Assembly (NCBI GenBank): GCA_023460515.1
Contig: JAEWPS010000038.1
Span: forward strand, 93,338-125,337
Source: Bacillota bacterium
GTDB taxonomy: Bacteria > Bacillota > Clostridia > TANB77 > CAG-465
Direction: 5' to 3'
DNA length: 32,000 nt
Notes under the pieces: generated by a model
Told to the model about the DNA's origin: nothing
Seen by the model: the letters and a program-made list of their open reading frames with translations, nothing else
Databases searched by the model: none
Shown: piece by piece, positions 6,845 through 31,010 of the stretch
How positions within the stretch are numbered: position 1 is the first letter of the stretch
Layout of the letters: each line of letters opens with the position of its first letter
Made by a program: the position numbers and the translations under genes

Positions 6845-8304
6845 TAATTAATCTCTCCTTTATTTTCTAATACTTTAATTAATAACTCATTTACTGTTTT
6901 AGGGTTTGCTTTTCCTTTAGATAGTTTCATTATTTGACCTACTAAAAATCCGATTGCTTTATCTTTTCCAGCTAAATAATCTGAAACTGATTGATCATTT
7001 TCATTAACTACTTGTTCTACTATTTTTAAAATAGCTGATTCATCAGTTATCTGTACTAATCCTTTTTCTTCAACTATTTCTTTTGCATCTTTTCCTGTTT
7101 CGAACATTTCAATAAATACCTTTTTAGCCATTGCAGAAGATATAACATTAGTATCAATTAATTTTATTAAATTAGCTAAATTAGATTCAGTTATTTTACT
7201 TTGGTTTATTTCAATACCCACTTCATTTAACATTTTAGAAAAATCACTCATAATCCAGTTTGTAACTGCTTTTGGATTATTACATAAACTTACAGTATTA
7301 TCAAAATAATTAGCCAATATTTTTGAGTTTGTTATTTGAGAAGCATCATATTCAGATAACATATATTGCTGCATATATCTTGTTTTTCTCGCATTTGGCA
7401 TTTCTGGTAAATTATTTTTAATATTTTTAACATATTCTTCAGATAATACTATAGGTGCTAGATCTGGTTCTTCAAAGTATCTATAATCATGCGCATCTTC
7501 TTTTGTTCTCATTGCATAACCTATACCTTTACTATCATCAAATCGTCTTGTTTCTTGGTATATTGTTCCACCATTTTCTATTTCTTCTATCTGTCTTCTT
7601 ATTTCAAATTCTATTGATCTTTGAATAGATTTAAACGAATTTAAATTCTTTGTTTCTGTTCTTGTTCCAAACTTAGGAGCTCCATATTTTCTAACAGATA
7701 AGTTAACATCACATCTTAACGAACCTTCTTGCATTTTACAATCACAAACTTCTAAATACTCTAATATACCTTTTAATGTTTGCATATATTCTATAGCTTC
7801 AGCAGCACTTCTTATATCTGGTTCAGATACTATCTCTATTAAAGGTACCGCACATCTATTCATATCTACTAAAGTTGATCCTGTAAATTCATCATGTATT
7901 AACTTACCAGCATCTTCTTCAATATGTATTCTTGTTATACCAATTTTTTTATGTTCTCCGTTTACCAATATATCTACATGTCCATTATTACAAAGTGGCA
8001 AATCATATTGAGATGTTTGATATGCTTTAGGTAAATCTGGATAAAAATAGTTTTTTCTATCTTGTTTAGAAAATTTAGCTATTTCACAATTTGTTGCAAG
8101 ACCCATTTTAACCGCAAACTCCACCACTTTTTCATTAAGCACTGGAAGTACTCCAGGCATACCTGTACATATTGGACAACAATGTGTATTAGGATCTGAT
8201 CCAAATTCTGTACTACAATTACAATATATTTTTGTTTTTGTAGCAAGCTCAGCATGTACTTCTAATCCTATTATTACTTCATATTCTTTTAATTTATCTT
8301 CCAT
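6844..8304 (-). CDS. gatB: Asp-tRNA(Asn)/Glu-tRNA(Gln) amidotransferase subunit B
   Basis: Full-length GatB similarity (VIGLEVHAELATKTKIYC, C-terminal YqeY-like tail). AGGAGG RBS. Confidence 0.96.
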   Translation of the reverse strand: MEDKLKEYEVIIGLEVHAELATKTKIYCNCSTEFGSDPNTHCCPICTGMPGVLPVLNEKVVEFAVKMGLATNCEIAKFSKQDRKNYFYPDLPKAYQTSQYDLPLCNNGHVDILVNGEHKKIGITRIHIEEDAGKLIHDEFTGSTLVDMNRCAVPLIEIVSEPDIRSAAEAIEYMQTLKGILEYLEVCDCKMQEGSLRCDVNLSVRKYGAPKFGTRTETKNLNSFKSIQRSIEFEIRRQIEEIENGGTIYQETRRFDDSKGIGYAMRTKEDAHDYRYFEEPDLAPIVLSEEYVKNIKNNLPEMPNARKTRYMQQYMLSEYDASQITNSKILANYFDNTVSLCNNPKAVTNWIMSDFSKMLNEVGIEINQSKITESNLANLIKLIDTNVISSAMAKKVFIEMFETGKDAKEIVEEKGLVQITDESAILKIVEQVVNENDQSVSDYLAGKDKAIGFLVGQIMKLSKGKANPKTVNELLIKVLENKGEIN

Positions 8305-8314
8305 ATACTGCCTC

Positions 8315-9775
8315 CTATATATTAGGTTTCATTTTATGAAACTCTGTATTTTGTTCAAAAGTGTATGCAGCTTGCAATAACTTTTTCTCTTCAAATGCTG
8401 AAGCTATAAATTGTAGTCCTATAGGCATATTATTGCTATCAAAACCACAAGGAATAGATATTCCAGGAAGACCAGCCATATTTACTGGTACTGTATATAT
8501 ATCCTCTAAATACATTTCTAATGGATTTGTTGTTTTTGCTCCAATTTTAAATGCTGTATTAGGTGCGGTTGGAATTGCTATTATATCACAACTTTCAAAC
8601 ACTCTTTTAAAATCATTTATTATTAATGTTCTAACCTTTTGTGCTTTTTTATAATATGCATCATAATATCCACTACTTAAAACATAAGTACCAAGCATTA
8701 TTCTTCTTTTTACTTCTTCTCCAAATCCTTCTGTTCTAGACTTTTTATATAAATCTAATAAATCTTCAAATTTATCTGTTCTATAACCATATTTTATACC
8801 ATCATATCTACCTAAGTTAGAAGAAGCTTCAGCAGTTGCTATTATATAATAAGTTGCAAGAGAGTATTTTATATAATCTAAATTAACATCTATTACCTTA
8901 GCACCATGTTCTACTAATTTATCTATACTGTTATCAAAAGCTTTCTTAACTTCTGGATTTAATCCTTCTTTTAAAAATTCTCTTGGTACACCAATAGTAA
9001 TATCTTTTACATCATTTATTAAATATTTAGTGTAATCTATTTTATTTAAGTTAACACTAGTTGTATCTTTATCATCATGTCCTACTATACTATTTAGCAT
9101 AATAGCCATATCTGTGACATCTTTTGTAAACGGTCCAATTTGATCTAACGAAGATGCAAAAGCAACTAATCCAAATCTTGATACTAATCCATATGTAGGT
9201 TTCATACCAACTGTACTACAATATGAAGCAGGTTGTCTTATACTACCACCAGTATCGCTACCAAGAGATGCAAATGCCATATCACTTGATACACTCGCTG
9301 CACTTCCACCACTAGATCCACCTGGAACTTTAGTAATATCCCATGGATTAACAGTTTTCTTAAAGTATGAGCTTTCTGTTGAAGAACCCATAGCAAATTC
9401 ATCCATGTTAGTTTTACCAATTATTATTGCACCTAAAGATTCTAGTCTTTCAACAACTGTTGCATCATAGGGAGATACAAAATTTTCTAACATTTTTGAA
9501 CCACATGTAGTTTTGACATCTTTAATACAGATATTGTCTTTTATAGCTATAGGAACCCCTCCTAAAATACCAATATCTTCTCCATCGTTTAGTTGTTTTT
9601 GTAATTTATCTGCACGTATATATGCATATTCTTTAGTTAAATTTATATATGCATTTACTTTAGTTTCAATATCATCTATTCTTGAATAGATACTATCTAA
9701 AACCTCTCTTATTGTTACTTCTTTTGATTTAATTTTATCCGATATTTCATGTATTGTTAAACTATATAATTCCAT
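8315..9775 (-). CDS. gatA: Glutamyl-tRNA(Gln) amidotransferase subunit A
   Basis: Amidase signature [11 protein letters not shown]...[12 protein letters not shown]. Start taken at [10 protein letters not shown] (ATG 9773-9775), just after the gatC stop. Confidence 0.96.
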
Positions 9776-9776
9776 A

Positions 9777-10064
9777 TTACTCCACCACCTTTGGTAAACT
9801 AATGCATCCTGATTCTTTTGTTGGAGCATTTTCTAAAATTCTATCTCTACTATATGAAGGTTTAACTTCATCTTTTCTAAATACGTTTACATTTTCTAAA
9901 ATATGTGCTGTAGGTTTAACATCATCAGTATTTAATTTACTGATTTCATTTGCCATATCTACAATATTAGATAATGTCTCAGCATATTTATCTACCATAT
10001 TATCTTCTACATTAATCCTAGATAAATTAGCTATGTGTTTTATTTCTTCTCTTGATATACTCAT
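9777..10064 (-). CDS. gatC: Asp/Glu-tRNA amidotransferase subunit C
   Basis: 95 aa with the [19 protein letters not shown] motif typical of GatC. GGGAGG RBS. First gene of the gatCAB order. Confidence 0.9.
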
Positions 10065-10094
10065 ATATGGTTCCTCCCTAATTCAATAAGTATT

Positions 10095-10123
10095 ATTATA
10101 TATTAAAAGTAGCAAAAAATCAA
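10095..10123 (-). promoter_or_regulatory. Putative sigma-A promoter of gatCAB
   Basis: Minus strand reads TTGATT, 17 nt, TATAAT, about 30 nt upstream of the gatC RBS. Confidence 0.45.
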
Positions 10124-10162
10124 GGGAATACGCAAAATTAATTAATTATGTAAAAATATGGA

Positions 10163-10197
10163 CAAAAAATGAACTGTATAAGGATTGTATACAGTTC
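10163..10197 (-). terminator. Rho-independent terminator downstream of the 10234-10668 gene
   Basis: Perfect 10-bp stem gaactgtata / tatacagttc, followed by TTTTTT on the minus strand. Confidence 0.7.
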
Positions 10198-10233
10198 ACA
10201 TATATAATATCTATAAAGATTTTTGCATTCGAA

Positions 10234-10668
10234 TTAACTAATTTTAAATGTTTCTTTTTTAACTAAACCAGTTGTATTTATATAATAATCATGTTCCTCT
10301 ATTATTTCTTCTACTTTAACAGAAATATCAAAGATTTCATAACAATTAATAATATAACCATTAAATTCATTTAGTTCCAAATATTTATTTACTTTATTTA
10401 TAAATGATTCTTTACCATTCACTACAAAAACAAAGGTCTCTTTTTCATAATCGTTTATTACACCTTCATTAAGCCACTCTGTAAAGAACGAATTATCTTG
10501 CATTTTTTTATAAAACTTTGAAATTATATTTTTTAATCTTTTCTTTTCACTTTTTTCGTTAATATATACCACCTTTACATTGTTCAATTCATTTGAAATA
10601 AAGTTGTTTGCTATTATACAAGAATGTGTATAATTTACTGTAAAACAACATAACTTAATTTTATTCAT
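10234..10668 (-). CDS. Hypothetical cytoplasmic protein of about 144 aa, no recognisable family
   Basis: ORF with its own terminator. Start chosen at MNKIKL (ATG 10666-10668), 11 nt after a GGGGA motif. The upstream ORF-track start overlaps that RBS. Confidence 0.5.
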   Translation of the reverse strand: MNKIKLCCFTVNYTHSCIIANNFISNELNNVKVVYINEKSEKKRLKNIISKFYKKMQDNSFFTEWLNEGVINDYEKETFVFVVNGKESFINKVNKYLELNEFNGYIINCYEIFDISVKVEEIIEEHDYYINTTGLVKKETFKIS

Positions 10669-10885
10669 CTTTTGTACCATCCCCTTATGTAATAATTTTA
10701 GCACACCAAAAATTATAAGTCAACGAAAAAAAATGACTAATTTTATCCTCTTTTGACTAAAAAAACAGAATAAAATACTAGATTAAAATCTGACACTAAT
10801 TTAAGATTTTTTAATACTTTTTTTGCTATTTTTAGATAGTTTAAATATTTTAAAAATACTAACAATATATGTAGGTGATTTATAA

Positions 10886-11503
10886 ATGAAACAAAAGATT
10901 AAAGGTTTAAATATTCCACTAATAATATGTATATTTTCAGTAATATTACTATCATTATATACTTCAATAGGGTTATATAATAAAAGTAAAACAGTAGAAA
11001 ATTCATTTAGACTGCATGTTGTAGCAAATAGTAATAGTATAGAAGATCAATTAATAAAATTGAAAATAGCAGATAAAATTGAAAATTTCATTAATACTTT
11101 AATAAATAAGGAAAATATAACAAAAAATGAAATATACAATACTTTACATTCTAACATAGACCAAATACTAACAATTTCAAATGAAGAACTAAAAAAAAGT
11201 AATATAACTTACTCTTCTAATGCAAAACTTGGAAAGATATATTATGAAGAAAAGGAGAATATTTATACAACAATGGATGATGGATCTTATGACAGCTTAC
11301 AGATACTTTTGGGTGATGCAAAAGGAAAAAATTATTGGAATCTCATATTTCCTAATAAGGACAAAATAAAAAATTTAGAAGGATTAGAAAATATTCTACC
11401 TGGTATATCTAATCTATACGAAAATGAAGAATCGATAGAAGAAAATAATTTAGAACCTACATATTCTTTTAAAATTTTAGAAATAATTGAAAATATTTTT
11501 TAA
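10886..11503 (+). CDS. spoIIR: Stage II sporulation protein R
   Basis: N-terminal signal anchor followed by the FRLHVVANSNSIEDQLIKLKIADKI motif characteristic of SpoIIR. AGGTGA RBS. Confidence 0.85.
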   Translation: MKQKIKGLNIPLIICIFSVILLSLYTSIGLYNKSKTVENSFRLHVVANSNSIEDQLIKLKIADKIENFINTLINKENITKNEIYNTLHSNIDQILTISNEELKKSNITYSSNAKLGKIYYEEKENIYTTMDDGSYDSLQILLGDAKGKNYWNLIFPNKDKIKNLEGLENILPGISNLYENEESIEENNLEPTYSFKILEIIENIF

Positions 11504-11586
11504 ATTTTTCAAATTAGTTGCATTTGCAACATAAGTTTATCTTAGATATAGTATAATATTAGTGTAAATTTAGGAGGTATAAATAA

Positions 11587-12297
11587 ATGGATAAATTTAA
11601 TAGCAATCAAAAAATAAAAGATATAGTTACAAAATTTCCAAAGGCAGCTGATGTATTAAAAAAATTTAAAATTGACTTTTGTTGTGGTGGTGATAGACCT
11701 TTAATTGTAGCAATAAATAACCAAGACCTTGATGAAAAAGAAATATTAGATACTTTAAATACGATGTATGAAAATTTTGCTAATAATAAAACAAATCAAA
11801 GTAACGATTGGACAAGTGTATCTTTAACAGATTTAATCGACCATATTGTAAATACACATCATTCATATCTTTATGAAAATCTACCGGTAATAAGTGAGCT
11901 TTTAACTAAAACATTAAGAGCACATGGAAACGCTCATCCAGAGATTCAAGAAGTTTACAAATTATTTCATTTGTTAAAAATGGAACTAGATTCTCATTTA
12001 ATAAAAGAAGAAACCGTTCAGTATCCAGCTATAGAAGAATACGAAAAAAGTAACTCAATTGCTGACTTAGAAAATGCTATTCTAATTTCTAAAGAATTAG
12101 AAACTGAACATACTGGGGCTGGAGATATATTAAAAAAATTAAGAAAAATAACTAATGAATATATTATTCCTGCTGATGCGTGTAATACATATAAATTAAC
12201 TTATGAAAAACTAGAAGATTTAGAATCGGATTTATTTGAACATATACATCTAGAAAATAACATATTATTTCCAAGATTATATAGCCTTAAAAAATAA
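11587..12297 (+). CDS. ric: Iron-sulfur cluster repair di-iron protein (RIC; ScdA/YtfE family)
   Basis: N-terminal ScdA_N motif KFKIDFCCGG, followed by hemerythrin-like His/Glu repeats (HH..LYE, H..KEE, EH, H..LEN..LFP). AGGAGG RBS. Confidence 0.85.
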   Translation: MDKFNSNQKIKDIVTKFPKAADVLKKFKIDFCCGGDRPLIVAINNQDLDEKEILDTLNTMYENFANNKTNQSNDWTSVSLTDLIDHIVNTHHSYLYENLPVISELLTKTLRAHGNAHPEIQEVYKLFHLLKMELDSHLIKEETVQYPAIEEYEKSNSIADLENAILISKELETEHTGAGDILKKLRKITNEYIIPADACNTYKLTYEKLEDLESDLFEHIHLENNILFPRLYSLKK

Positions 12298-12306
12298 TTA
12301 TATATA

Positions 12307-12339
12307 AGATGATAGATAATCTCTATCATCTATTTTTTA
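12307..12339 (+). terminator. Rho-independent terminator of ric
   Basis: Perfect 10-bp stem agatgataga / tctatcatct followed by ATTTTTT. Confidence 0.7.
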
Positions 12340-12346
12340 ATTGCAT

Positions 12347-12397
12347 AAAAAAATAGTTGTAATTCAAGTTTTTAAACTTACATACAACTATTTTTTA
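12347..12397. terminator. Second, bidirectional hairpin, probably the terminator for the DUF378 gene
   Basis: Stem aaaaaatagttgta / tacaactatttttt with a nested aagttt/aaactt pairing. Confidence 0.5.
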
Positions 12398-18736: not shown

Positions 18737-20729
18737 TTAATAACCAATATTTTTAAATTTATTAACTTTTGTACAAATATATTTTTCTAGTTTATTCATA
18801 AACTCTTCTGGCTGTATCTCACCATCTGCGACCATATTTAAACCTTTTTCCCAGCTTGCAGTAAGTTCTGGATTAAGTAAATCGTTCATTGATGACTTAA
18901 CTATATCATATACTGCCTCACCTTTTTTAGTAGGAGTAAGTATTTGAGTTTTTTTATTTGAAGATATATATCCTATTCTTTCTAATTTTTTAATAATTTC
19001 AGCTCTAGTAGCACTTGTGCCAATGCCAGCAGATTTTATTTGTTCCCTTAGTTTATCATCTTCAATAAGTTTACCTGCATTCTCCATAGCAAGAATAATA
19101 GAACCAGAATTATATCTAGTAGAAGGACTTGTCTCACCTGTTTTGATTTCAATACTATTTAAGGCTATTTTCTGACCTTTTTTCAAGCTTTTTAAAATTT
19201 CAATATTGTTTTCAACTTCTGCCTCAGCTTCTTCTTTATTTTCACTAACTTCTTCATCATCTTTTATAATTTTCTTTGAATTTTCTTCTTTTTCTTTATT
19301 TACAACTTCTAAATATCCTTCTTCAATACATACTTTTCCTGATGTATAAAAGCTTTCTTTATTATTTTCAGTACTTACATCTATAACTACATTTATTTTA
19401 CTAAACTGAGCCGGTGGATAAAATATACATAAAAATCTTATTATAACCATATTAAATATATTTTTTTCCAGATCAGATAAACTATTATAGTTTTCAAAAC
19501 CTTGACCAGTTGGAACTAATGCATAGTGATCTGTTACTTTAGAATCATTAACATATTTTGTTTTAAGTAAATCTGTAGAATATTTTTCTACTATCATTTT
19601 ATCTAGTATTTCTTTAATATATTCTTGTTTATTACCTTTTACTATACCATTTAAATTCTTGCTAATTTCTTTTGCTGCTGAAGTAGATAGTACTCTAGCA
19701 TCAGTTCTAGGATAGGTAAGCATCTTTTTTTCATATAAAGTTTGAGCGACTTTTAAAGTATCGTCTGGACTTATTTTAAATCTTCTTGTACACTCATTTT
19801 GAAGTTCTGCTAAGTTAAATAGAAGTGGAGCATTTTCCTTTATAGTTTTTTTAGTGATTTCAGATATACTTGTATTTTCTTTGTTTTTTAATATATATTC
19901 TTTTGCTTCTATTGCAAAATTTTCTTTTAAAAAACCAGATTCATTATATAGTAATGGTGAATTAAAATATGCAGATTTTTCGCTTACTTTCCAATCTGCT
20001 AAAAAATTACTTTCAGCTGAAAAACTACCTTCTAATTTATAAAACTTTAATTTAGTAAAATCTCTTATTTCTCTCTCTCTATTAACTATCATACCTAATA
20101 CACAAGTCATTACTCTACCTATAGATATAACTGCTTTTTCTTCTTCCATTTTCTTAGCTAAACTTTTACCATAAACAACAGATAAAAGCCTAGAAAAATT
20201 TATACCAATTAAATAATCTTCTTTTGCTCTTAAATATGCGCTATTAGCTAAAGCATCGTAATCACTAAGTGCTTTAGCATCTTTTATTCCATTTAATATG
20301 GCTTCTTCTGTTTGAGAATCGATCCAAACTCTTCTTTTATCTTTGCATTTAACATTCGCCATACTATCTACAAGTCTATATATATACTCTCCTTCTCTTC
20401 CTGAGTCGGTACAAACATAAATAGTTTCTATATCTTCTCTATTTAATAATTTACTTACTATATTAAATTGAGCAGAGACACTATCTATTACTTCATATTT
20501 GTATTCTTTAGGTACAAAAGGAAGTGTATATATATTCCAAAACTTTAATTTTTCATCATATTTATCTGGATAACTCATTGTAACTAAATGTCCGTACACA
20601 CCAAGTTATAACGTAATCTTCAGATTCTAAATAACCGTTTTGTACTCTGGCATCTACTTTCAGTACCCTAGCAAATTCTTTAGCTACACTAGGTTTCTCT
20701 GATATTATTAACTTCTTTATATTATTCAC
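18737..20729 (-). pseudogene. topB: DNA topoisomerase III interrupted by a +1 frameshift within 20594-20600
   Basis: The upstream frame gives the Toprim N-terminus KKLIISEKPSVAKEFARVL...YVITWCV. The downstream frame continues GHLVTMSYPDKY... through the full type IA core. GTG start at 20727-20729 with a GAGGT RBS. Confidence 0.85.
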
Positions 20730-20865
20730 CCACTTAACCTCTACATTATACAATAAAAATAGGGTGAAATCAAGTAAACAGTAAAAAAATACCTTTAACA
20801 TAATATAGATTATATCTATATATATATTAAAAGTATTATATGCAAATTAATAATTATATCTCTTC

Positions 20866-23019: not shown

Positions 23020-23274
23020 TTATTTAAAGTTATTATAAAATTCTTTCAATTCTTTTTTCTTATCTTCAGATAACTGTATCTTTGGAATACCTTGTATTGC
23101 ACCCTCTAAACCACATAATCTATTGTAACAAGCAGATTTATCAATATTCTTAATTTTAAGCCACGCTTGCATGCTCCCAATTTTTTTTAATTGTTCATAT
23201 GTTTTAATTCCTACTTTATTTAGTTGTTCTTCAACAACTGAACCTATATTAGGTAAATTAGATAATTTCTCCAT
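23020..23274 (-). CDS. TfoX/Sxy C-terminal-domain-only protein
   Basis: 84 aa: LSNLPNIGSVVEEQLNKVGIKTYEQLKKIGSMQAWLKIK...CYNRLCGLEGAIQGI, matching the TfoX_C helix-hairpin-helix-like pattern. Starts 18 nt after the stop of the pilin-like gene. Confidence 0.7.
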   Translation of the reverse strand: MEKLSNLPNIGSVVEEQLNKVGIKTYEQLKKIGSMQAWLKIKNIDKSACYNRLCGLEGAIQGIPKIQLSEDKKKELKEFYNNFK

Positions 23275-23292: not shown

Positions 23293-24492
23293 CTATAATA
23301 TATATAATACTAATCTAAAAGTAAGATAATAACTACTATTTGTACTATAGTTAAAACCTCTATAGCCTGCTGGATAACCCGCGCCACTAGCAAAACAAAC
23401 TCCACTACGATTAATGGAAGAATCTGATCCATAAGTTTCATTTGTCCATTCCCATGCATTCCCAGCAATATCATATATATTCTTTGCTTTCCAATATTCA
23501 CTATACCCAGTATTTTGCATGTTTCCATAACCTGATGCATTAGCAGGAGAAACAGAATCGCCATAATTTCCCCAAGAACTACTGTCTAAAGAAGTATCTT
23601 TTCCTGAAACTTGCAACCATTTCATTAATGTATCCCATTGTGTTCCTGTTATAAGTCCACTTTTTACTTCTACTGTGTTAAACATGGACTCTGCTTTTGT
23701 TTTTGCATCAGCCCAATTAATATCATTCCAAACTATTGCATTTTTTTTGCTCACTAATGTAGTATCAGATTCTTTTCCTGCTTCATATCTAGCTACATAA
23801 AATCCGCCATAATTTGTTACTTGATCAATTTCATTATTTATACCTAGTGGTAATATCCCATCAGTAGTATTAATAGAGCTTGCAGAAGTTTTAGCAGCAT
23901 CCAATTTTAAATATTTAACACTAGTATTATCTACTGGAACCCAAACAAATTCATTATGTGCTGAATCTTCTATAACTAATCCCGAACGCCAAGTACCCTC
24001 TTTATATGTAAAACCTGTTGGCACATAAGGAAGTTTATACTTTTCTACATTTAATAATTGTGGTTTTATTGTTGTATATGGAAGTGTAATATTTCCAGTT
24101 GGTATTCCCATATCTGTAATCCAGTCTTTTTCCTTTTGATCTGTTCCAACATATATTAATTTACCTTTTTGTATTTCAAATTTTAATGCATCTTTTTCTT
24201 CTATATTTGTTATATATTCTTTAATTGTTCCCTCTTTATTTTCTTCTGTTCCATCCCATACACTAGCATTAAATGAATTTGGATTAAAAGAACCATTTTG
24301 TAAATATTGATTTGATGTATCCATTACAAGTTCAGAATTATATGAAGTAATATTTGCTTTAAATGTCGCTTCATTAGCCTGATTTATTATATTACTATTT
24401 AATAAACTAAGTATTACAGCTCCTGCTAATATTAATATCACAATTATAGTTATAACTAATACTATTAATGTTATTCCTCTCTTGCTTTTCAA
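23293..24492 (-). CDS. Prepilin-like N-terminus fused to an FGE/SUMF1-fold (formylglycine-generating-enzyme-like) domain, paralog A
   Basis: TTG start with an AAGGGGGA RBS. N-terminus MKSKRG-ITLIVLVITIIVILILAGAVIL. C-terminal motifs FVWVPVD, GGFYVARYEAGK, NWADAK, TGTQWDTLMKW, YDIAGNAWEWTNE and FRLVL. Confidence 0.75.
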   Translation of the reverse strand: MKSKRGITLIVLVITIIVILILAGAVILSLLNSNIINQANEATFKANITSYNSELVMDTSNQYLQNGSFNPNSFNASVWDGTEENKEGTIKEYITNIEEKDALKFEIQKGKLIYVGTDQKEKDWITDMGIPTGNITLPYTTIKPQLLNVEKYKLPYVPTGFTYKEGTWRSGLVIEDSAHNEFVWVPVDNTSVKYLKLDAAKTSASSINTTDGILPLGINNEIDQVTNYGGFYVARYEAGKESDTTLVSKKNAIVWNDINWADAKTKAESMFNTVEVKSGLITGTQWDTLMKWLQVSGKDTSLDSSSWGNYGDSVSPANASGYGNMQNTGYSEYWKAKNIYDIAGNAWEWTNETYGSDSSINRSGVCFASGAGYPAGYRGFNYSTNSSYYLTFRLVLYIL

Positions 24493-24536
24493 AGTATAAT
24501 CCCCCTTATTTAAAATAACAATTTTAAGATATTTTA

Positions 24537-24565
24537 ATTATATGTTAAATACCTATTTTTGTCAA
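24537..24565 (-). promoter_or_regulatory. Consensus sigma-A promoter of paralog A
   Basis: Minus strand reads exactly TTGACA, 17 nt, TATAAT, about 45 nt upstream of the TTG start. Confidence 0.55.
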
Positions 24566-25681: not shown

Positions 25682-25722
25682 TAAAAAAGCAAACCAGCAT
25701 TGAAATTAATCAAAACTGATTT
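25682..25722 (-). terminator. Rho-independent terminator of small gene 1
   Basis: 12-bp stem in the minus-strand RNA (AAUCAGUUUUGA / UCAAUGCUGGUU, with two G-U pairs and one mismatch), followed by GCUUUUUU. Confidence 0.6.
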
Positions 25723-25742
25723 ACTTTTTATAGTATAATTTG

Positions 25743-26024
25743 TTAATGATAGACTGCTACTTCTTGTAATGTTTGTCTCTTTAATATAAGTTCTTCATAA
25801 GTATTAACAGCAGAAAAATTTCTTTTCATAAATTTAATACAGTCCTCTGTTTCTGTTAGCTCTTTTTCATATTTATCATTAGCTTTACGTAGATTACTAT
25901 TTTGGAGTATCTGTCTTAAGTTTTTTTCACTTTCTTTTAACATAATCCAAGTATTAATCTCTGAATTGTCTAATATAAATTTTTCAATTCTGCAGTCAAG
26001 TTCGATAATTATATCTTCCTTCAT
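25743..26024 (-). CDS. Small helical hypothetical protein of 93 aa, cassette copy 1
   Basis: AAGGAG RBS, with its own promoter and terminator. About 31 percent identical, by a hand-counted gapless alignment, to the 26204-26500 product. Confidence 0.6.
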   Translation of the reverse strand: MKEDIIIELDCRIEKFILDNSEINTWIMLKESEKNLRQILQNSNLRKANDKYEKELTETEDCIKFMKRNFSAVNTYEELILKRQTLQEVAVYH

Positions 26025-26102: not shown

Positions 26103-26121
26103 ATTATAGCATATGTGTCAA
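26103..26121 (-). promoter_or_regulatory. Extended -10 promoter with a conserved upstream block, for small gene 1
   Basis: Minus strand reads CTTGACACATATGCTATAAT (TGnTATAAT). The block is near-identical upstream of small gene 2. Confidence 0.45.
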
Positions 26122-26147
26122 GGATTATAATTGCTATATTATGTGTT

Positions 26148-26193
26148 AAAAAGCAAGCCAGTTTTAAAATTAATCAAAACTGACTTAGACTAT
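26148..26193 (-). terminator. Rho-independent terminator of small gene 2
   Basis: 13-bp stem in the minus-strand RNA (AAGUCAGUUUUGA / UUAAAACUGGCUU, with two G-U pairs), followed by GCUUUUU. Confidence 0.6.
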
Positions 26194-26203
26194 TAACACC
26201 TTA

Positions 26204-26500
26204 TTATAGACTTTTTTCATCTATCTCTTGACTCTTGGACAACATCTTTTGTTTTACACAAATTAATGCATCATAAAGCATAAGTGAAGAGTATTCTTTC
26301 TTCATAGAAGACATTTCACTTTCTACTTTAGTAAGTTCTTCCCGATTTTCGGCACAATTTTCTAGTGGATTATTACTGCTTAGCATTTCTGTTAAAGCTT
26401 TTTGTTTTTCCTTCAGTAAAATCCAACCATATACCTCATTATGGGAGTTTTTAAGTTCTTTGATTTGAAGATCAATTTCTAAAATTCTGTCATTTTCCAT
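26204..26500 (-). CDS. Small helical hypothetical protein of 98 aa, cassette copy 2
   Basis: Start taken at MENDRILE (ATG 26498-26500), 8 nt after AGGAG. The ORF-track GTG overlaps the RBS. Paralog of the 25743-26024 product. Confidence 0.6.
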   Translation of the reverse strand: MENDRILEIDLQIKELKNSHNEVYGWILLKEKQKALTEMLSSNNPLENCAENREELTKVESEMSSMKKEYSSLMLYDALICVKQKMLSKSQEIDEKSL

Positions 26501-26594
26501 ACTCTTCACTCCTTTTTAGGTTATTTTTCATTGCAATATAGCGCCGCTTTAGGTAAATTTAATAAAACTTACCTAACAAATTAAAGATATATAC

Positions 26595-26613
26595 ATTATA
26601 CCATATGTGTCAA
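26595..26613 (-). promoter_or_regulatory. Extended -10 promoter with a conserved upstream block, for small gene 2
   Basis: Minus strand reads CTTGACACATATGGTATAAT. Confidence 0.45.
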
Positions 26614-26664
26614 GTATTACAGCTGCTAAATTTTGTCACTTTTAACGTATTAACTATTTTTAAC

Positions 26665-29786: not shown

Positions 29787-31010
29787 TTAAATTATATAAA
29801 GTACTACACGAAAAGATAAACAAACACTAGCATTTGTTACACTTGGATAGTCATTACCTCGATATGCAGCTGGTGCGTATCCGCCACCACTAGCATAATG
29901 AACACCCCCACGGCAAACACGAGTAGCTCCATAAATTTCACTTGTCCAATCCCAAGTATTCCCTGCTAGATCGTATATATTATTTGCTTTCCACATTTCA
30001 CTATATCCTGCTACTTGCTTTGTTTTATATCCTGTAACATTTGCAGGGGCTATCGAATCATAAAAATTTCCCCACGATCTACTATCTGTTATATTTTTAC
30101 CTAAATTTTGTACCCATTTCATTATTGTATCCCACTGTGTACCAGTTACAAGTCCACTTTTTACTTTATCTGTATTATACATTGATTCAGATTTTACTTT
30201 TAAATCCGTATATTTTATATTTGCCCATACTATTGCATTTTTTTTACTTACTAATTGATCTACCCCTACTTTTCCAGCTTCATATCTTGCTATATAAAAT
30301 CCACCATATTTTAAAACTTGGTTTTTTTCATTTGTTACACCTACTGGTAATGTATCATCTGTTGTTGATGCATATGATATGTTAGTTGTGCACCATTTTG
30401 TATACGTTACATTTGTTCCATCTACAGGAACCCACACAAATTGGTTTCCATTAACATCCTCTATTACTAATCCTTTATTCCAGTCCGTTGGCCATGTCGC
30501 ACCGTCATTAATTGCTTTAAATCCCTTAGGTATTAACGGATTTTGATATGTTGCTACTTTACCATTTACAGTCGCATTTTCCGTTGCTATTACATTTATA
30601 CCTAATTCTATTTTATTTAATATTCCCATTTCTTTAATATAATCTTTTTCTACTAAAACGTCTCCCACATAAACTAATTCACCTTTTTGTATTTCTAATT
30701 TTGCACCGTCTGCAACTGTTATACTTTTAATATATTCTTTTATTGTTCCTGCTATATTACCCTGTGTACCATCCCATGCAGCTGCGTTAAATAATCTTGG
30801 ATTAAAAGAACTACTCTGCAAATACTTGCCTGATATAACAATTGCAAGCTCTGAATTATATTGTTCTATATTTGTTTTAAATTTTGCTTCATTTGCTTGT
30901 GGTATTATATTGCTATTTGTTAAATTAAGTATAACTGATCCTGCTAGTATTATAATAACTATAATGGTTATTATTAGTACTATTAATGATATTCCTTTAT
31001 TTCTTTTCAT
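29787..31010 (-). CDS. Prepilin-like N-terminus fused to an FGE/SUMF1-fold domain, paralog B
   Basis: Start at MKRNKG-ISLIVLIITIIVIIILAGSVIL (ATG 31008-31010, AGAGGT RBS). C-terminal motifs FVWVPVD, GGFYIARYEAGK, TGTQWDTIMKW, YDLAGNTWDWTSE, RVCRGG and FRVVL. Colinear with paralog A. Confidence 0.75.
   Translation of the reverse strand: MKRNKGISLIVLIITIIVIIILAGSVILNLTNSNIIPQANEAKFKTNIEQYNSELAIVISGKYLQSSSFNPRLFNAAAWDGTQGNIAGTIKEYIKSITVADGAKLEIQKGELVYVGDVLVEKDYIKEMGILNKIELGINVIATENATVNGKVATYQNPLIPKGFKAINDGATWPTDWNKGLVIEDVNGNQFVWVPVDGTNVTYTKWCTTNISYASTTDDTLPVGVTNEKNQVLKYGGFYIARYEAGKVGVDQLVSKKNAIVWANIKYTDLKVKSESMYNTDKVKSGLVTGTQWDTIMKWVQNLGKNITDSRSWGNFYDSIAPANVTGYKTKQVAGYSEMWKANNIYDLAGNTWDWTSEIYGATRVCRGGVHYASGGGYAPAAYRGNDYPSVTNASVCLSFRVVLYII

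Follow-up and report, generated by a model that had tools for sequence, protein, structure and literature searches.

Formylglycine-generating enzyme (FGE)-type C-type-lectin-like (CLec) domains are a known class of targets of diversity-generating retroelements (DGRs), and they form the largest target category in the analysis of Wu et al. (2018; PMC5758913). Cellular DGR targets mostly possess an N-terminal transmembrane (TM) domain or signal peptide and have been read as membrane-anchored binders (Roux et al., 2021; PMC8144416), and a GspG-type pilin domain is among the rare DGR-target domains in one 2024 survey. Among type IV pilins, the modular pilins PilB and PilC of Streptococcus sanguinis carry a vWA module and a lectin module, respectively, and 264 architectures of modular type IV pilins have been recorded, with FGE/CLec not among the 15 most frequent listed (Raynaud et al., 2021; PMC8179133). 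In addition, a preprint on the type V pili of Bacteroides describes DGR-diversified adhesins whose association with the pilus was shown (bioRxiv 10.1101/2024.11.15.621889). Here we describe gene A, a 399-codon open reading frame (ORF) at 23293-24492 on the minus strand (an earlier note on this DNA had not given the strand) of a 32,000-nucleotide stretch of the Bacillota contig JAEWPS010000038.1, which is referred to as the window. Protein A is well explained at its C-terminus, an FGE-type CLec domain of the known DGR-target class; as far as can be judged from sequence, what appears to be new is its anchor, an N-terminal module (N-module) that resembles a prepilin signal and has no Glu at position +5 (Glu5, E5).

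The most informative fact about protein A, absent from the earlier note, is its link to DGR variable proteins. In homologues from metagenome-assembled genomes (MAGs) of other Clostridia, a DGR encoded in cis, which consists of Avd, a reverse transcriptase (RT) and a template repeat (TR), rewrites the C-terminal ~45 residues. The parts of protein A to which this and the following results refer, together with the paralog of gene A in the window, are listed below.

24475..24492, minus strand: basic leader MKSKRG, residues 1-6, with the family-invariant Gly last; putative class-III (prepilin-type) cleavage site
24400..24474, minus strand: residues 7-31 (ITLIVLVITIIVILILAGAVILSLL), a hydrophobic helix that is conserved and resembles pilin alpha1-N; it forms the core of the E5-less, portable N-module
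24112..24399, minus strand: predicted extracellular extension of the helix to about residue 65 and small alpha/beta sub-domain, residues 66-127, in a confident model
24031..24111, minus strand: linker of variable length and low confidence, residues 128-154, with indel-rich alignment columns and a predicted local distance difference test score (pLDDT) below 50 at residues 143-152
23296..24030, minus strand: predicted FGE-type CLec domain, residues 155-399, non-catalytic, of the DGR-variable-protein (TvpA/TaqVP) type
23302..23442, minus strand: residues ~351-397, counterpart of the region that DGRs mutate in homologues, with the highest variability within the family; presumed ligand-binding surface
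29787..31010, minus strand: paralog B, 407 aa beginning with MKRNKG, of the same architecture as A and 56% identical to it

The C-terminal domain and diversity-generating retroelements

An AlphaFold2 model of protein A, built on 37 homologues, reached a pLDDT of 85.8 overall and of more than 90 over residues 155-399. In a Foldseek search of the PDB, 39 structures matched at E<=1e-3, every one of them a member of the FGE/C-type-lectin-like superfamily; the best were the DGR variable proteins TaqVP of Thermus aquaticus (5vf4, probability 1.0, E=6e-6) and TvpA of Treponema denticola (2y3c), next came PvdO, CarF, SUMF2 and PorK (probability 1.0), and true FGEs and EgtB/OvoA ranked after these. The earlier note had recognized the fold from short sequence blocks, and all the motifs that it quoted are found at the positions implied (MKSKRG 1-6, ITLIV 7-11, VWVPV 183-187, ARYEAGK 234-240, NWADAK 259-264, TGTQWD 282-287, GNAWEWT 344-350 and FRLVL 392-396). 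Both a profile and a structural check had been suggested, and their outcomes differ: the FGE-sulfatase profile PF03781 scored 15.8 bits for A and 17.5 bits for B, below the gathering score of 23.3, whereas the model and its Foldseek matches place A in the FGE/CLec fold. A precomputed PF03781 match exists for about a dozen of 120 homologues, and the family profile matched SUMF2 in sequence searches at E=4.7e-4. As the Pfam scores of A and B are sub-threshold, the assignment to the FGE fold rests on structure prediction and Foldseek, and the predicted structure shows the C-terminal 245 residues of A in the FGE-type C-type-lectin fold that is used as the scaffold of DGR variable proteins. Protein A contains a single Cys (366) and a single His (179), neither of them conserved, and no column of the family alignment holds an invariant Cys or His, so that the FGE Cys pair, which the earlier note had already seen to be lacking, and the EgtB/OvoA iron ligands are absent.

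Because the Foldseek matches included DGR variable proteins, we searched for DGRs near family genes in 78 loci of species-representative genomes, which are without exception MAGs of uncultured Clostridia or Bacillota. A full DGR cassette lies directly downstream of the family gene in five of the 78 loci (L034, L039, L041, L049 and L068), in the order family gene, Avd, RT and TR, and the family proteins of the DGR loci share 28-44% identity with A, several of them from end to end. The Avd is a ~130-aa protein matching NF033474 (E=8e-18 and 3e-20), the RT matches RVT_1 (E=1e-18 to 1e-22), and the cassettes hold a 112-143-nt repeat of the 3' end of the family gene. Mismatches between the variable region (VR) in the gene and the downstream copy, the TR, which is rich in AAC codons, fall on adenines of the TR (20/20, 15/16 and 20/21), and such adenine-specific mismatches are the defining signature of mutagenic retrohoming by DGRs.

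The VR of these DGRs aligns to residues ~351-397 of protein A, and the mutable codons lie in the loops that separate conserved residues of the scaffold (WEWT, RGG, PA and FR). Among 115 non-DGR homologues, entropy at VR-equivalent positions was 2.57 bits, compared with 1.35 bits elsewhere in the C-terminal domain (Mann-Whitney p=8e-9), and the positions mutable in all three DGRs had a mean entropy of 3.25 bits. Since the VR maps to residues 351-397 of A and the same positions are the most variable in the family, A belongs to a family of variable binders on the TvpA scaffold, and its residues ~351-397 would form the ligand-binding surface. This family is large: protein A has 2997 homologues at E<=1e-3, and a profile of the C-terminal domain retrieved 7269 clusters at 50% identity, of which 1087 were matched at E<=1e-30. 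It is also cellular. A phage origin was rejected, with relatives on just four of 2.9 million viral contigs and no matches in PHROGs, and a role as a defense system was likewise dismissed, with no meaningful match in PADLOC. Some relatives are giant proteins with 17-19 tandem CLec copies (P0241, 3424 aa; P0242, 6477 aa; P0243, 5309 aa), which may be multivalent binders.

TvpA and TaqVP share with A the fold, the non-catalytic character, a variable surface made up of the C-terminal ~45 residues and a conserved F-R motif at the end, and homologues of A, like them, are targets of canonical Avd-RT-TR cassettes. In contrast, their sequence identity to A is only ~14-15%, and A and B have no cis DGR and no sign of ongoing mutagenesis. 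TvpA is a lipoprotein, whereas the family of A appears to be anchored by an E5-less pilin-like helix. A further likeness to TvpA is the presence of several paralogs within one genome (Wu et al., 2018; PMC5758913). Similarly, the targets described by Roux et al. (2021; PMC8144416) combine an N-terminal TM domain or signal with a C-terminal CLec variable region, as A does; however, the TM domains there are generic, whereas the N-terminus of A is a specific, conserved, pilin-related module, and most members of the A family, including A and B, are not linked to a DGR.

The window, ~51 kb of its contig and the two ortholog loci (L007 and L008) yielded neither an RT nor a TR-like repeat, and the only repeats in the window are those between A and B, which are 73-78% identical at the nucleotide level and end ~135 nt before the stop codon. 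Gene A differs from its 92% identical ortholog by 79 nt that are evenly spread; of the amino acid changes, four fall within the C-terminal 45 residues and 28 within the remaining 354, and the differences between paralog B and its 95% ortholog are likewise evenly spread. With no RT or TR in ~51 kb and no hot-spot between orthologs, we consider A and B to be fixed paralogs of a variable-binder family, and the action of a cis DGR on gene A was ruled out on the same grounds. Diversity in the lineage of gene A comes mainly from paralogy; for example, a single MAG (GCA_028704735.1) supplies ~20 of the best 120 matches to A, several of them in tandem.

Two alternative accounts of the C-terminal domain have to be weighed against this background. 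A membrane-anchored, functional enzyme of the SUMF1/EgtB/PvdO superfamily would agree with the fold, with the weak PF03781 match and with the name 'SUMF1/EgtB/PvdO family nonheme iron enzyme' given by NCBI to some homologues; yet conserved Cys and His residues are missing, the best structural matches (TaqVP, TvpA, PvdO, SUMF2 and PorK) are non-catalytic members, and the equivalent of the active-site region is precisely the hypervariable part that DGRs mutate. An enzymatic function is thus extremely improbable, and the NCBI name is misleading and should not be taken as a function. The suggestion that A binds a ligand and is not an enzyme has instead gained ground, from a fold nearest to DGR variable proteins, from the missing Cys pair and His triad and from relatives that are DGR targets. 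It is also very unlikely that gene A is an active target of a DGR acting in trans from elsewhere in the genome. Genuine DGR targets do exist within the family, the tail of A is the most variable family region, and remote targets have been described, trans diversification having been proposed for remote tvpA paralogs of T. denticola (Wu et al., 2018; PMC5758913). However, the ~51 kb and the two ortholog loci hold no RT and no TR-like copy of the tail of A or B, the changes between A and its ortholog, as between B and its own, are not concentrated in the tail, and indels separate the tail of A from that of B, which excludes one TR as the source of both.

The N-terminal module and its possible relation to prepilin signals

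The N-module follows one pattern in 117 of 120 homologues, namely a leader of 4-21 aa with K/R at -2, K or N as the commonest residues at -3 and an invariant Gly, after which comes the nearly invariant I-S-L-I-V-L-[VI]-[IV]-T-I-I-V-I-I-I-L-A-G. It is the most conserved stretch of the protein, and this conservation is selected at the protein level: over the 25 codons of the module, paralogs show 8-10 synonymous and 2-7 nonsynonymous differences, and the abundance of synonymous differences rules out gene conversion as the source of the conservation. The module is not confined to the CLec family. It also heads other proteins of the same MAGs, from 136 to more than 1500 aa long and with unrelated C-terminal parts, and a profile search returned at least 6616 proteins. 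Among 150 diverse representatives of the C-terminal domain, 59 carry the strict module and many more carry variants of it. We found no description in the literature of a Glu5-less module of this kind or of its dominance in the CLec family.

The top matches of the module search, short proteins of 60-118 aa, had the appearance of minimal pilins bearing the N-module, but they proved to be pieces of genes, cut short by frameshifts in long-read assemblies or by the ends of contigs, or coming from a family gene with a frameshift. For example, a frameshift divides a family gene in locus L094 (665-2069) into two ORFs, one of 96 aa with the N-module and a weak Pfam N_methyl match and one of 370 aa with the FGE-sulfatase domain. 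Since many short N-module proteins in the databases are such assembly or frameshift fragments, counts of small pilin-like proteins are inflated. In addition, a second Glu5-less N-terminal variant, K-G-S-[IV]-T-[LI]-F-V-L..., occurs on the CLec proteins P0242, P0271, P0351 and P0359, and it may resemble the N-termini of PilX_N/TadE-type pseudopilins.

Class-III signals have been described by a short charged leader with Gly or Ala right before the hydrophobic stretch, by a run of 14 or more hydrophobic, uncharged residues downstream of the cleavage site and 'usually' by Glu or Asp at +5 (Imam et al., 2011; PMC3244431). Protein A shows the leader and the Gly (MKSKRG, then ITLIV), and Gly6 is followed by a hydrophobic run of 25 residues and by 34 uncharged residues in all; at +5, however, it carries Val. 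When the N-module profile was compared with 177,635 PDB sequences, the best matches were type IV pilins, in register and with the invariant Gly on the prepilin cleavage Gly, at marginal E-values (Geobacter PilA-N, 7.6e-4; MshA, 0.0096; S. sanguinis PilE1, 0.04), and the JGI pipeline names some family members PilE or PulG. Moreover, the same CLec domain is combined with a canonical prepilin signal in three relatives, two in locus L054 (MKKA/FTLIELL and MKG/FTLIELL) and one in P0324 (KG/FTLIELL). The L054 proteins scored 23.4 and 25.6 bits on TIGR02532 (cutoff 16.3), which provides a positive control for the failure of A on this model; one of them matches residues 106-398 of A (E=1e-36, 33% identity), and P0324 has a precomputed Pfam N_methyl match. 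Finally, a peptidase of the A24 family is encoded 3.3 kb from the homologue P0104 (L004, 5981-6724); it possesses the two catalytic Asp motifs and lacks the Cys-rich methyltransferase part.

These findings are opposed by a series of results that weigh against a prepilin signal. Neither Glu nor Asp was found at +5 in any of the 117 homologues (V in 109, L in 5, I in 2 and M in 1), in keeping with the Val that the earlier note had read in A, and the residue at +1 is Ile, not Phe or Met. On the Pfam N_methyl model (PF07963), A scored 9.6 bits, below the gathering cutoff of 21.2, and TIGR02532 gave no match for A. The pilin matches in the PDB are only marginally significant and lie in a hydrophobic helix. 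The model of the N-terminal domain (residues 1-140, pLDDT 88) consists of a ~60-residue helix (5-65) followed only by a two-strand hairpin and short helices, with no recognizable pilin head, and Foldseek of this model against the PDB returned no pilin, all matches having E>2. As regards genomic context, no T2SSE-type assembly ATPase and no PilB/PilC/PilD-type gene was found in the 1.3 Mb flanking the 78 loci, the sole exception being the A24 peptidase, in a single lineage; nor was a prepilin peptidase or an assembly ATPase found in ~51 kb around gene A, which extends the observation that the window itself holds no pilus machinery. The absence of machinery is weak evidence, however, because the relatives with canonical prepilin signals are equally orphan. 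The proposal of a prepilin-like N-terminus has therefore fared unevenly: the layout, the marginal in-register pilin matches and the relatives with a GFTLIE signal speak for it, while Pfam and TIGR02532, the residue at +5, the fold and the gene linkage speak against it. We regard the N-terminus as a portable module whose relation to the class-III signal of type IV pilins is partly supported by sequence comparison.

Some observations were made at the loci just mentioned. The two L054 genes (6911-9625 and 9679-12387) encode tandem proteins of ~900 aa, each made up of a prepilin signal, DUF4434 (E=4e-27 and 2e-31) and CLec. The low G+C content, a ribosomal protein operon of Firmicute style and an apparent SpoIID-like gene suggest that their contig, which bears the label Muribaculaceae, is a mis-binned one from Bacillota, and the upstream operon, considered as possible pilus machinery, consists of housekeeping genes. 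In the lineage with the A24 peptidase, a sortase gene and genes for TED/SpaA-domain adhesins, of the type found with sortase-dependent pili, lie 4-10 kb downstream of P0104 (L004, 15535-21221). A recurrent accessory gene beside the family was also sought by all-vs-all clustering of flanking ORFs, and the clusters comprised the family itself, antisense artefacts, ABC ATPases at chance level and DGR genes. A paper on a Tad-like pilus of TANB77 (PMC11680825) concerns a different set of proteins, and no link to it was made.

The modular pilins PilB and PilC of S. sanguinis resemble A in architecture, in that a pilin-type helix at the N-terminus leads into a small module, which a short linker joins to a bulky binding module, and, as in modular pilins, the N-module combines with many C-terminal modules; the rare A-family members with a GFTLIE signal are bona fide modular pilins. 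However, PilB and PilC contain the IPR012902 motif, fold as canonical pilins and have their genes in a pil locus, whereas A failed the motif models, has no Glu5 and no recognizable pilin head and is encoded by an orphan gene. Another comparison is offered by GspK-type tip subunits, which are large, have a class-III N-terminus without Glu at +5 and stand at the tip of the filament. Protein A shares with GspK a class-III-like N-terminus without this Glu, but GspK is encoded in type II secretion system (T2SS) operons along with E5-containing partners, whereas no E5-containing partner or machinery was present in any A-family neighborhood examined. As E5 is absent from all of the at least 6600 carriers of the module, its absence is not an exception within a set, as it is for GspK. 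With the Bacteroides type V system, A shares the general idea, namely binding domains open to DGR diversification that gut bacteria present on carriers of pilus type; in contrast, type V pili are an outer-membrane system of Bacteroidota with unrelated carrier domains, and the pilus association that was shown there is for A a proposal.

Based on these considerations, we propose that A and B are non-enzymatic ligand-binding proteins displayed outside the cytoplasmic membrane on a pilin-like helix. On insertion into the membrane, the N-terminus of the protein would stay in the cytoplasm and the C-terminus would face outward, a prepilin-type peptidase of the A24 family lacking the methyltransferase part would cut it after Gly6, and the pilin-like helix would then hold the mature protein. 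In this arrangement the helix, the small sub-domain and the flexible linker would act as a stalk, and specificity would reside in the C-terminal loops. Protein A may be a non-polymerizing, membrane-embedded, 'pseudopilin-like' stalk, or it may associate with a type IV filament as a tip or priming subunit; being without Glu5, it would not be expected to serve as a subunit of the filament body. The earlier note had likewise offered a tip-located and a tethered form. Each paralog would represent one fixed specificity from a repertoire that owes its diversity chiefly to gene duplication, with DGR mutagenesis contributing in certain lineages, and the ligand is likely to be a surface glycan or protein on a host, a food particle, a phage or another microbe. 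For the whole of this explanation, cleavage after Gly6 included, we estimate a probability of roughly 0.5, and the part that describes a surface binder from the family of DGR variable proteins is, taken alone, highly probable.

The same C-terminal surface binder could also be held by an ordinary, uncleaved signal anchor, as a type II membrane protein, with the conservation of its N-terminus due to helix-helix packing, oligomerization or another partner and not to a prepilin peptidase or a filament. This is a serious, if tentative, alternative, to which the lack of Glu5 in all members, the failure of the curated prepilin models, the N-terminal domain without a pilin fold and the missing genomic linkage to filament machinery lend support, as does the reading of most cellular DGR targets as membrane-anchored by Roux et al. 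(2021; PMC8144416). What a plain anchor leaves unexplained is why an invariant Gly, with K/R at -2, should mark so precisely the point where a leader of variable length (4-21 aa) gives way to the helix, why pilins should be the top matches and in register, why the module should be portable over unrelated proteins, and why canonical GFTLIE signals should replace it on the same C-terminal domain. A further-reaching version of the pilin-like display is that K-G-I-[ST]-L-I-[VA]-L...ILAG marks a separate class-III signal system, lacking Glu5, in uncultured Clostridia of low G+C content, in which an A24 peptidase without the methyltransferase part would process thousands of modular surface proteins for display on, or priming by, a type IV filament-like or 'bindosome-like' assembly; we consider this speculative and rather unlikely.

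The setting of gene A

Gene A begins with a TTG codon (24492-24490), upstream of which two expression signals were recognized.

24501..24507, minus strand: strong Shine-Dalgarno sequence AAGGGGG, 8 nt 5' of the TTG start of gene A, identified from sequence
24537..24565, minus strand: sigma-70-type promoter, TTGACA-17 nt-TATAAT, a 12/12 sequence match

The window has a G+C content of ~27%, and the rest of it is occupied by housekeeping genes typical of an anaerobic spore-forming Firmicute, including tgt, gatCAB, mfd, ligA and genes for rubrerythrin, desulfoferrodoxin and a four-subunit 2-oxoacid:ferredoxin oxidoreductase; paralog B lies 6.5 kb away from gene A. An identical protein A is present in ENA, Logan and NCBI assemblies, and the nearest GTDB representative is an uncultured 'Clostridia bacterium' MAG with a 92% identical protein in a syntenic position. 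The gene 18 nt downstream of gene A (23020-23274, minus strand) encodes an 84-aa protein that corresponds to the C-terminal domain of TfoX alone (PF04994, E=3.6e-25) and is probably co-transcribed with gene A. It is kept beside the identical gene A copies in L001, L002 and L090 and is missing from the syntenic PHD15 MAG. TfoX is elsewhere a regulator of competence, and a link of this neighbor to Com-type pseudopili is conceivable.

Two further features of the window lie apart from the family. Tandem paralogous small ORFs of 93 and 101 aa (25743-26024 and 26204-26509, minus strand), helical-looking and without a Pfam match, have duplicated upstream sequences (26103-26144 and 26595-26636; 25684-25723 and 26148-26187). 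A type IA topoisomerase gene (18737-20801, minus strand) is distributed over two frames, with the shift site at ~20589-20595: the Toprim ORF ends in ...ITWCVRTFSYNELSR*, the main ORF starts as (GTG)YGHLVTMSYPDKYD, and skipping one base at GTA-C-GGA restores the conserved motif ...WCV-GHLV.... In a different MAG (L003, ~11465-11475), a +1 shift is needed at the same rare CGG codon of this gene (ATA-C-GGG), and the gene is called as split in independent assemblies; it could be a case of conserved programmed +1 frameshifting or a truly split gene.

Implications for uncultured Clostridia

At least 6600 proteins carry an N-module that the standard prepilin models overlook and that occupies, on the CLec domain, the same site as the canonical prepilin signals of rare relatives. 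If the module is cleaved by a prepilin peptidase, the rules that require E5 in pilins overlook a major class of type IV pilin-like proteins of Gram-positive bacteria; without cleavage, the module would be a membrane anchor with a striking degree of conservation, for which a reason would have to be found. Should the Glu5-less filament system prove real, its CLec members would be the first type IV pilin-borne adhesins of Gram-positive bacteria that can be reprogrammed by DGRs, and a counterpart of the type V pilus adhesins that DGRs diversify in Bacteroides. More generally, if the surface-binder reading is true, uncultured Clostridia of guts and digesters would hold large repertoires of variable lectin-fold binders, amounting to ~20 paralogs in a single MAG and to thousands of clusters in all, and some lineages would reprogram these binders by DGRs, which bears on how they recognize hosts, particles, phages and neighbors.

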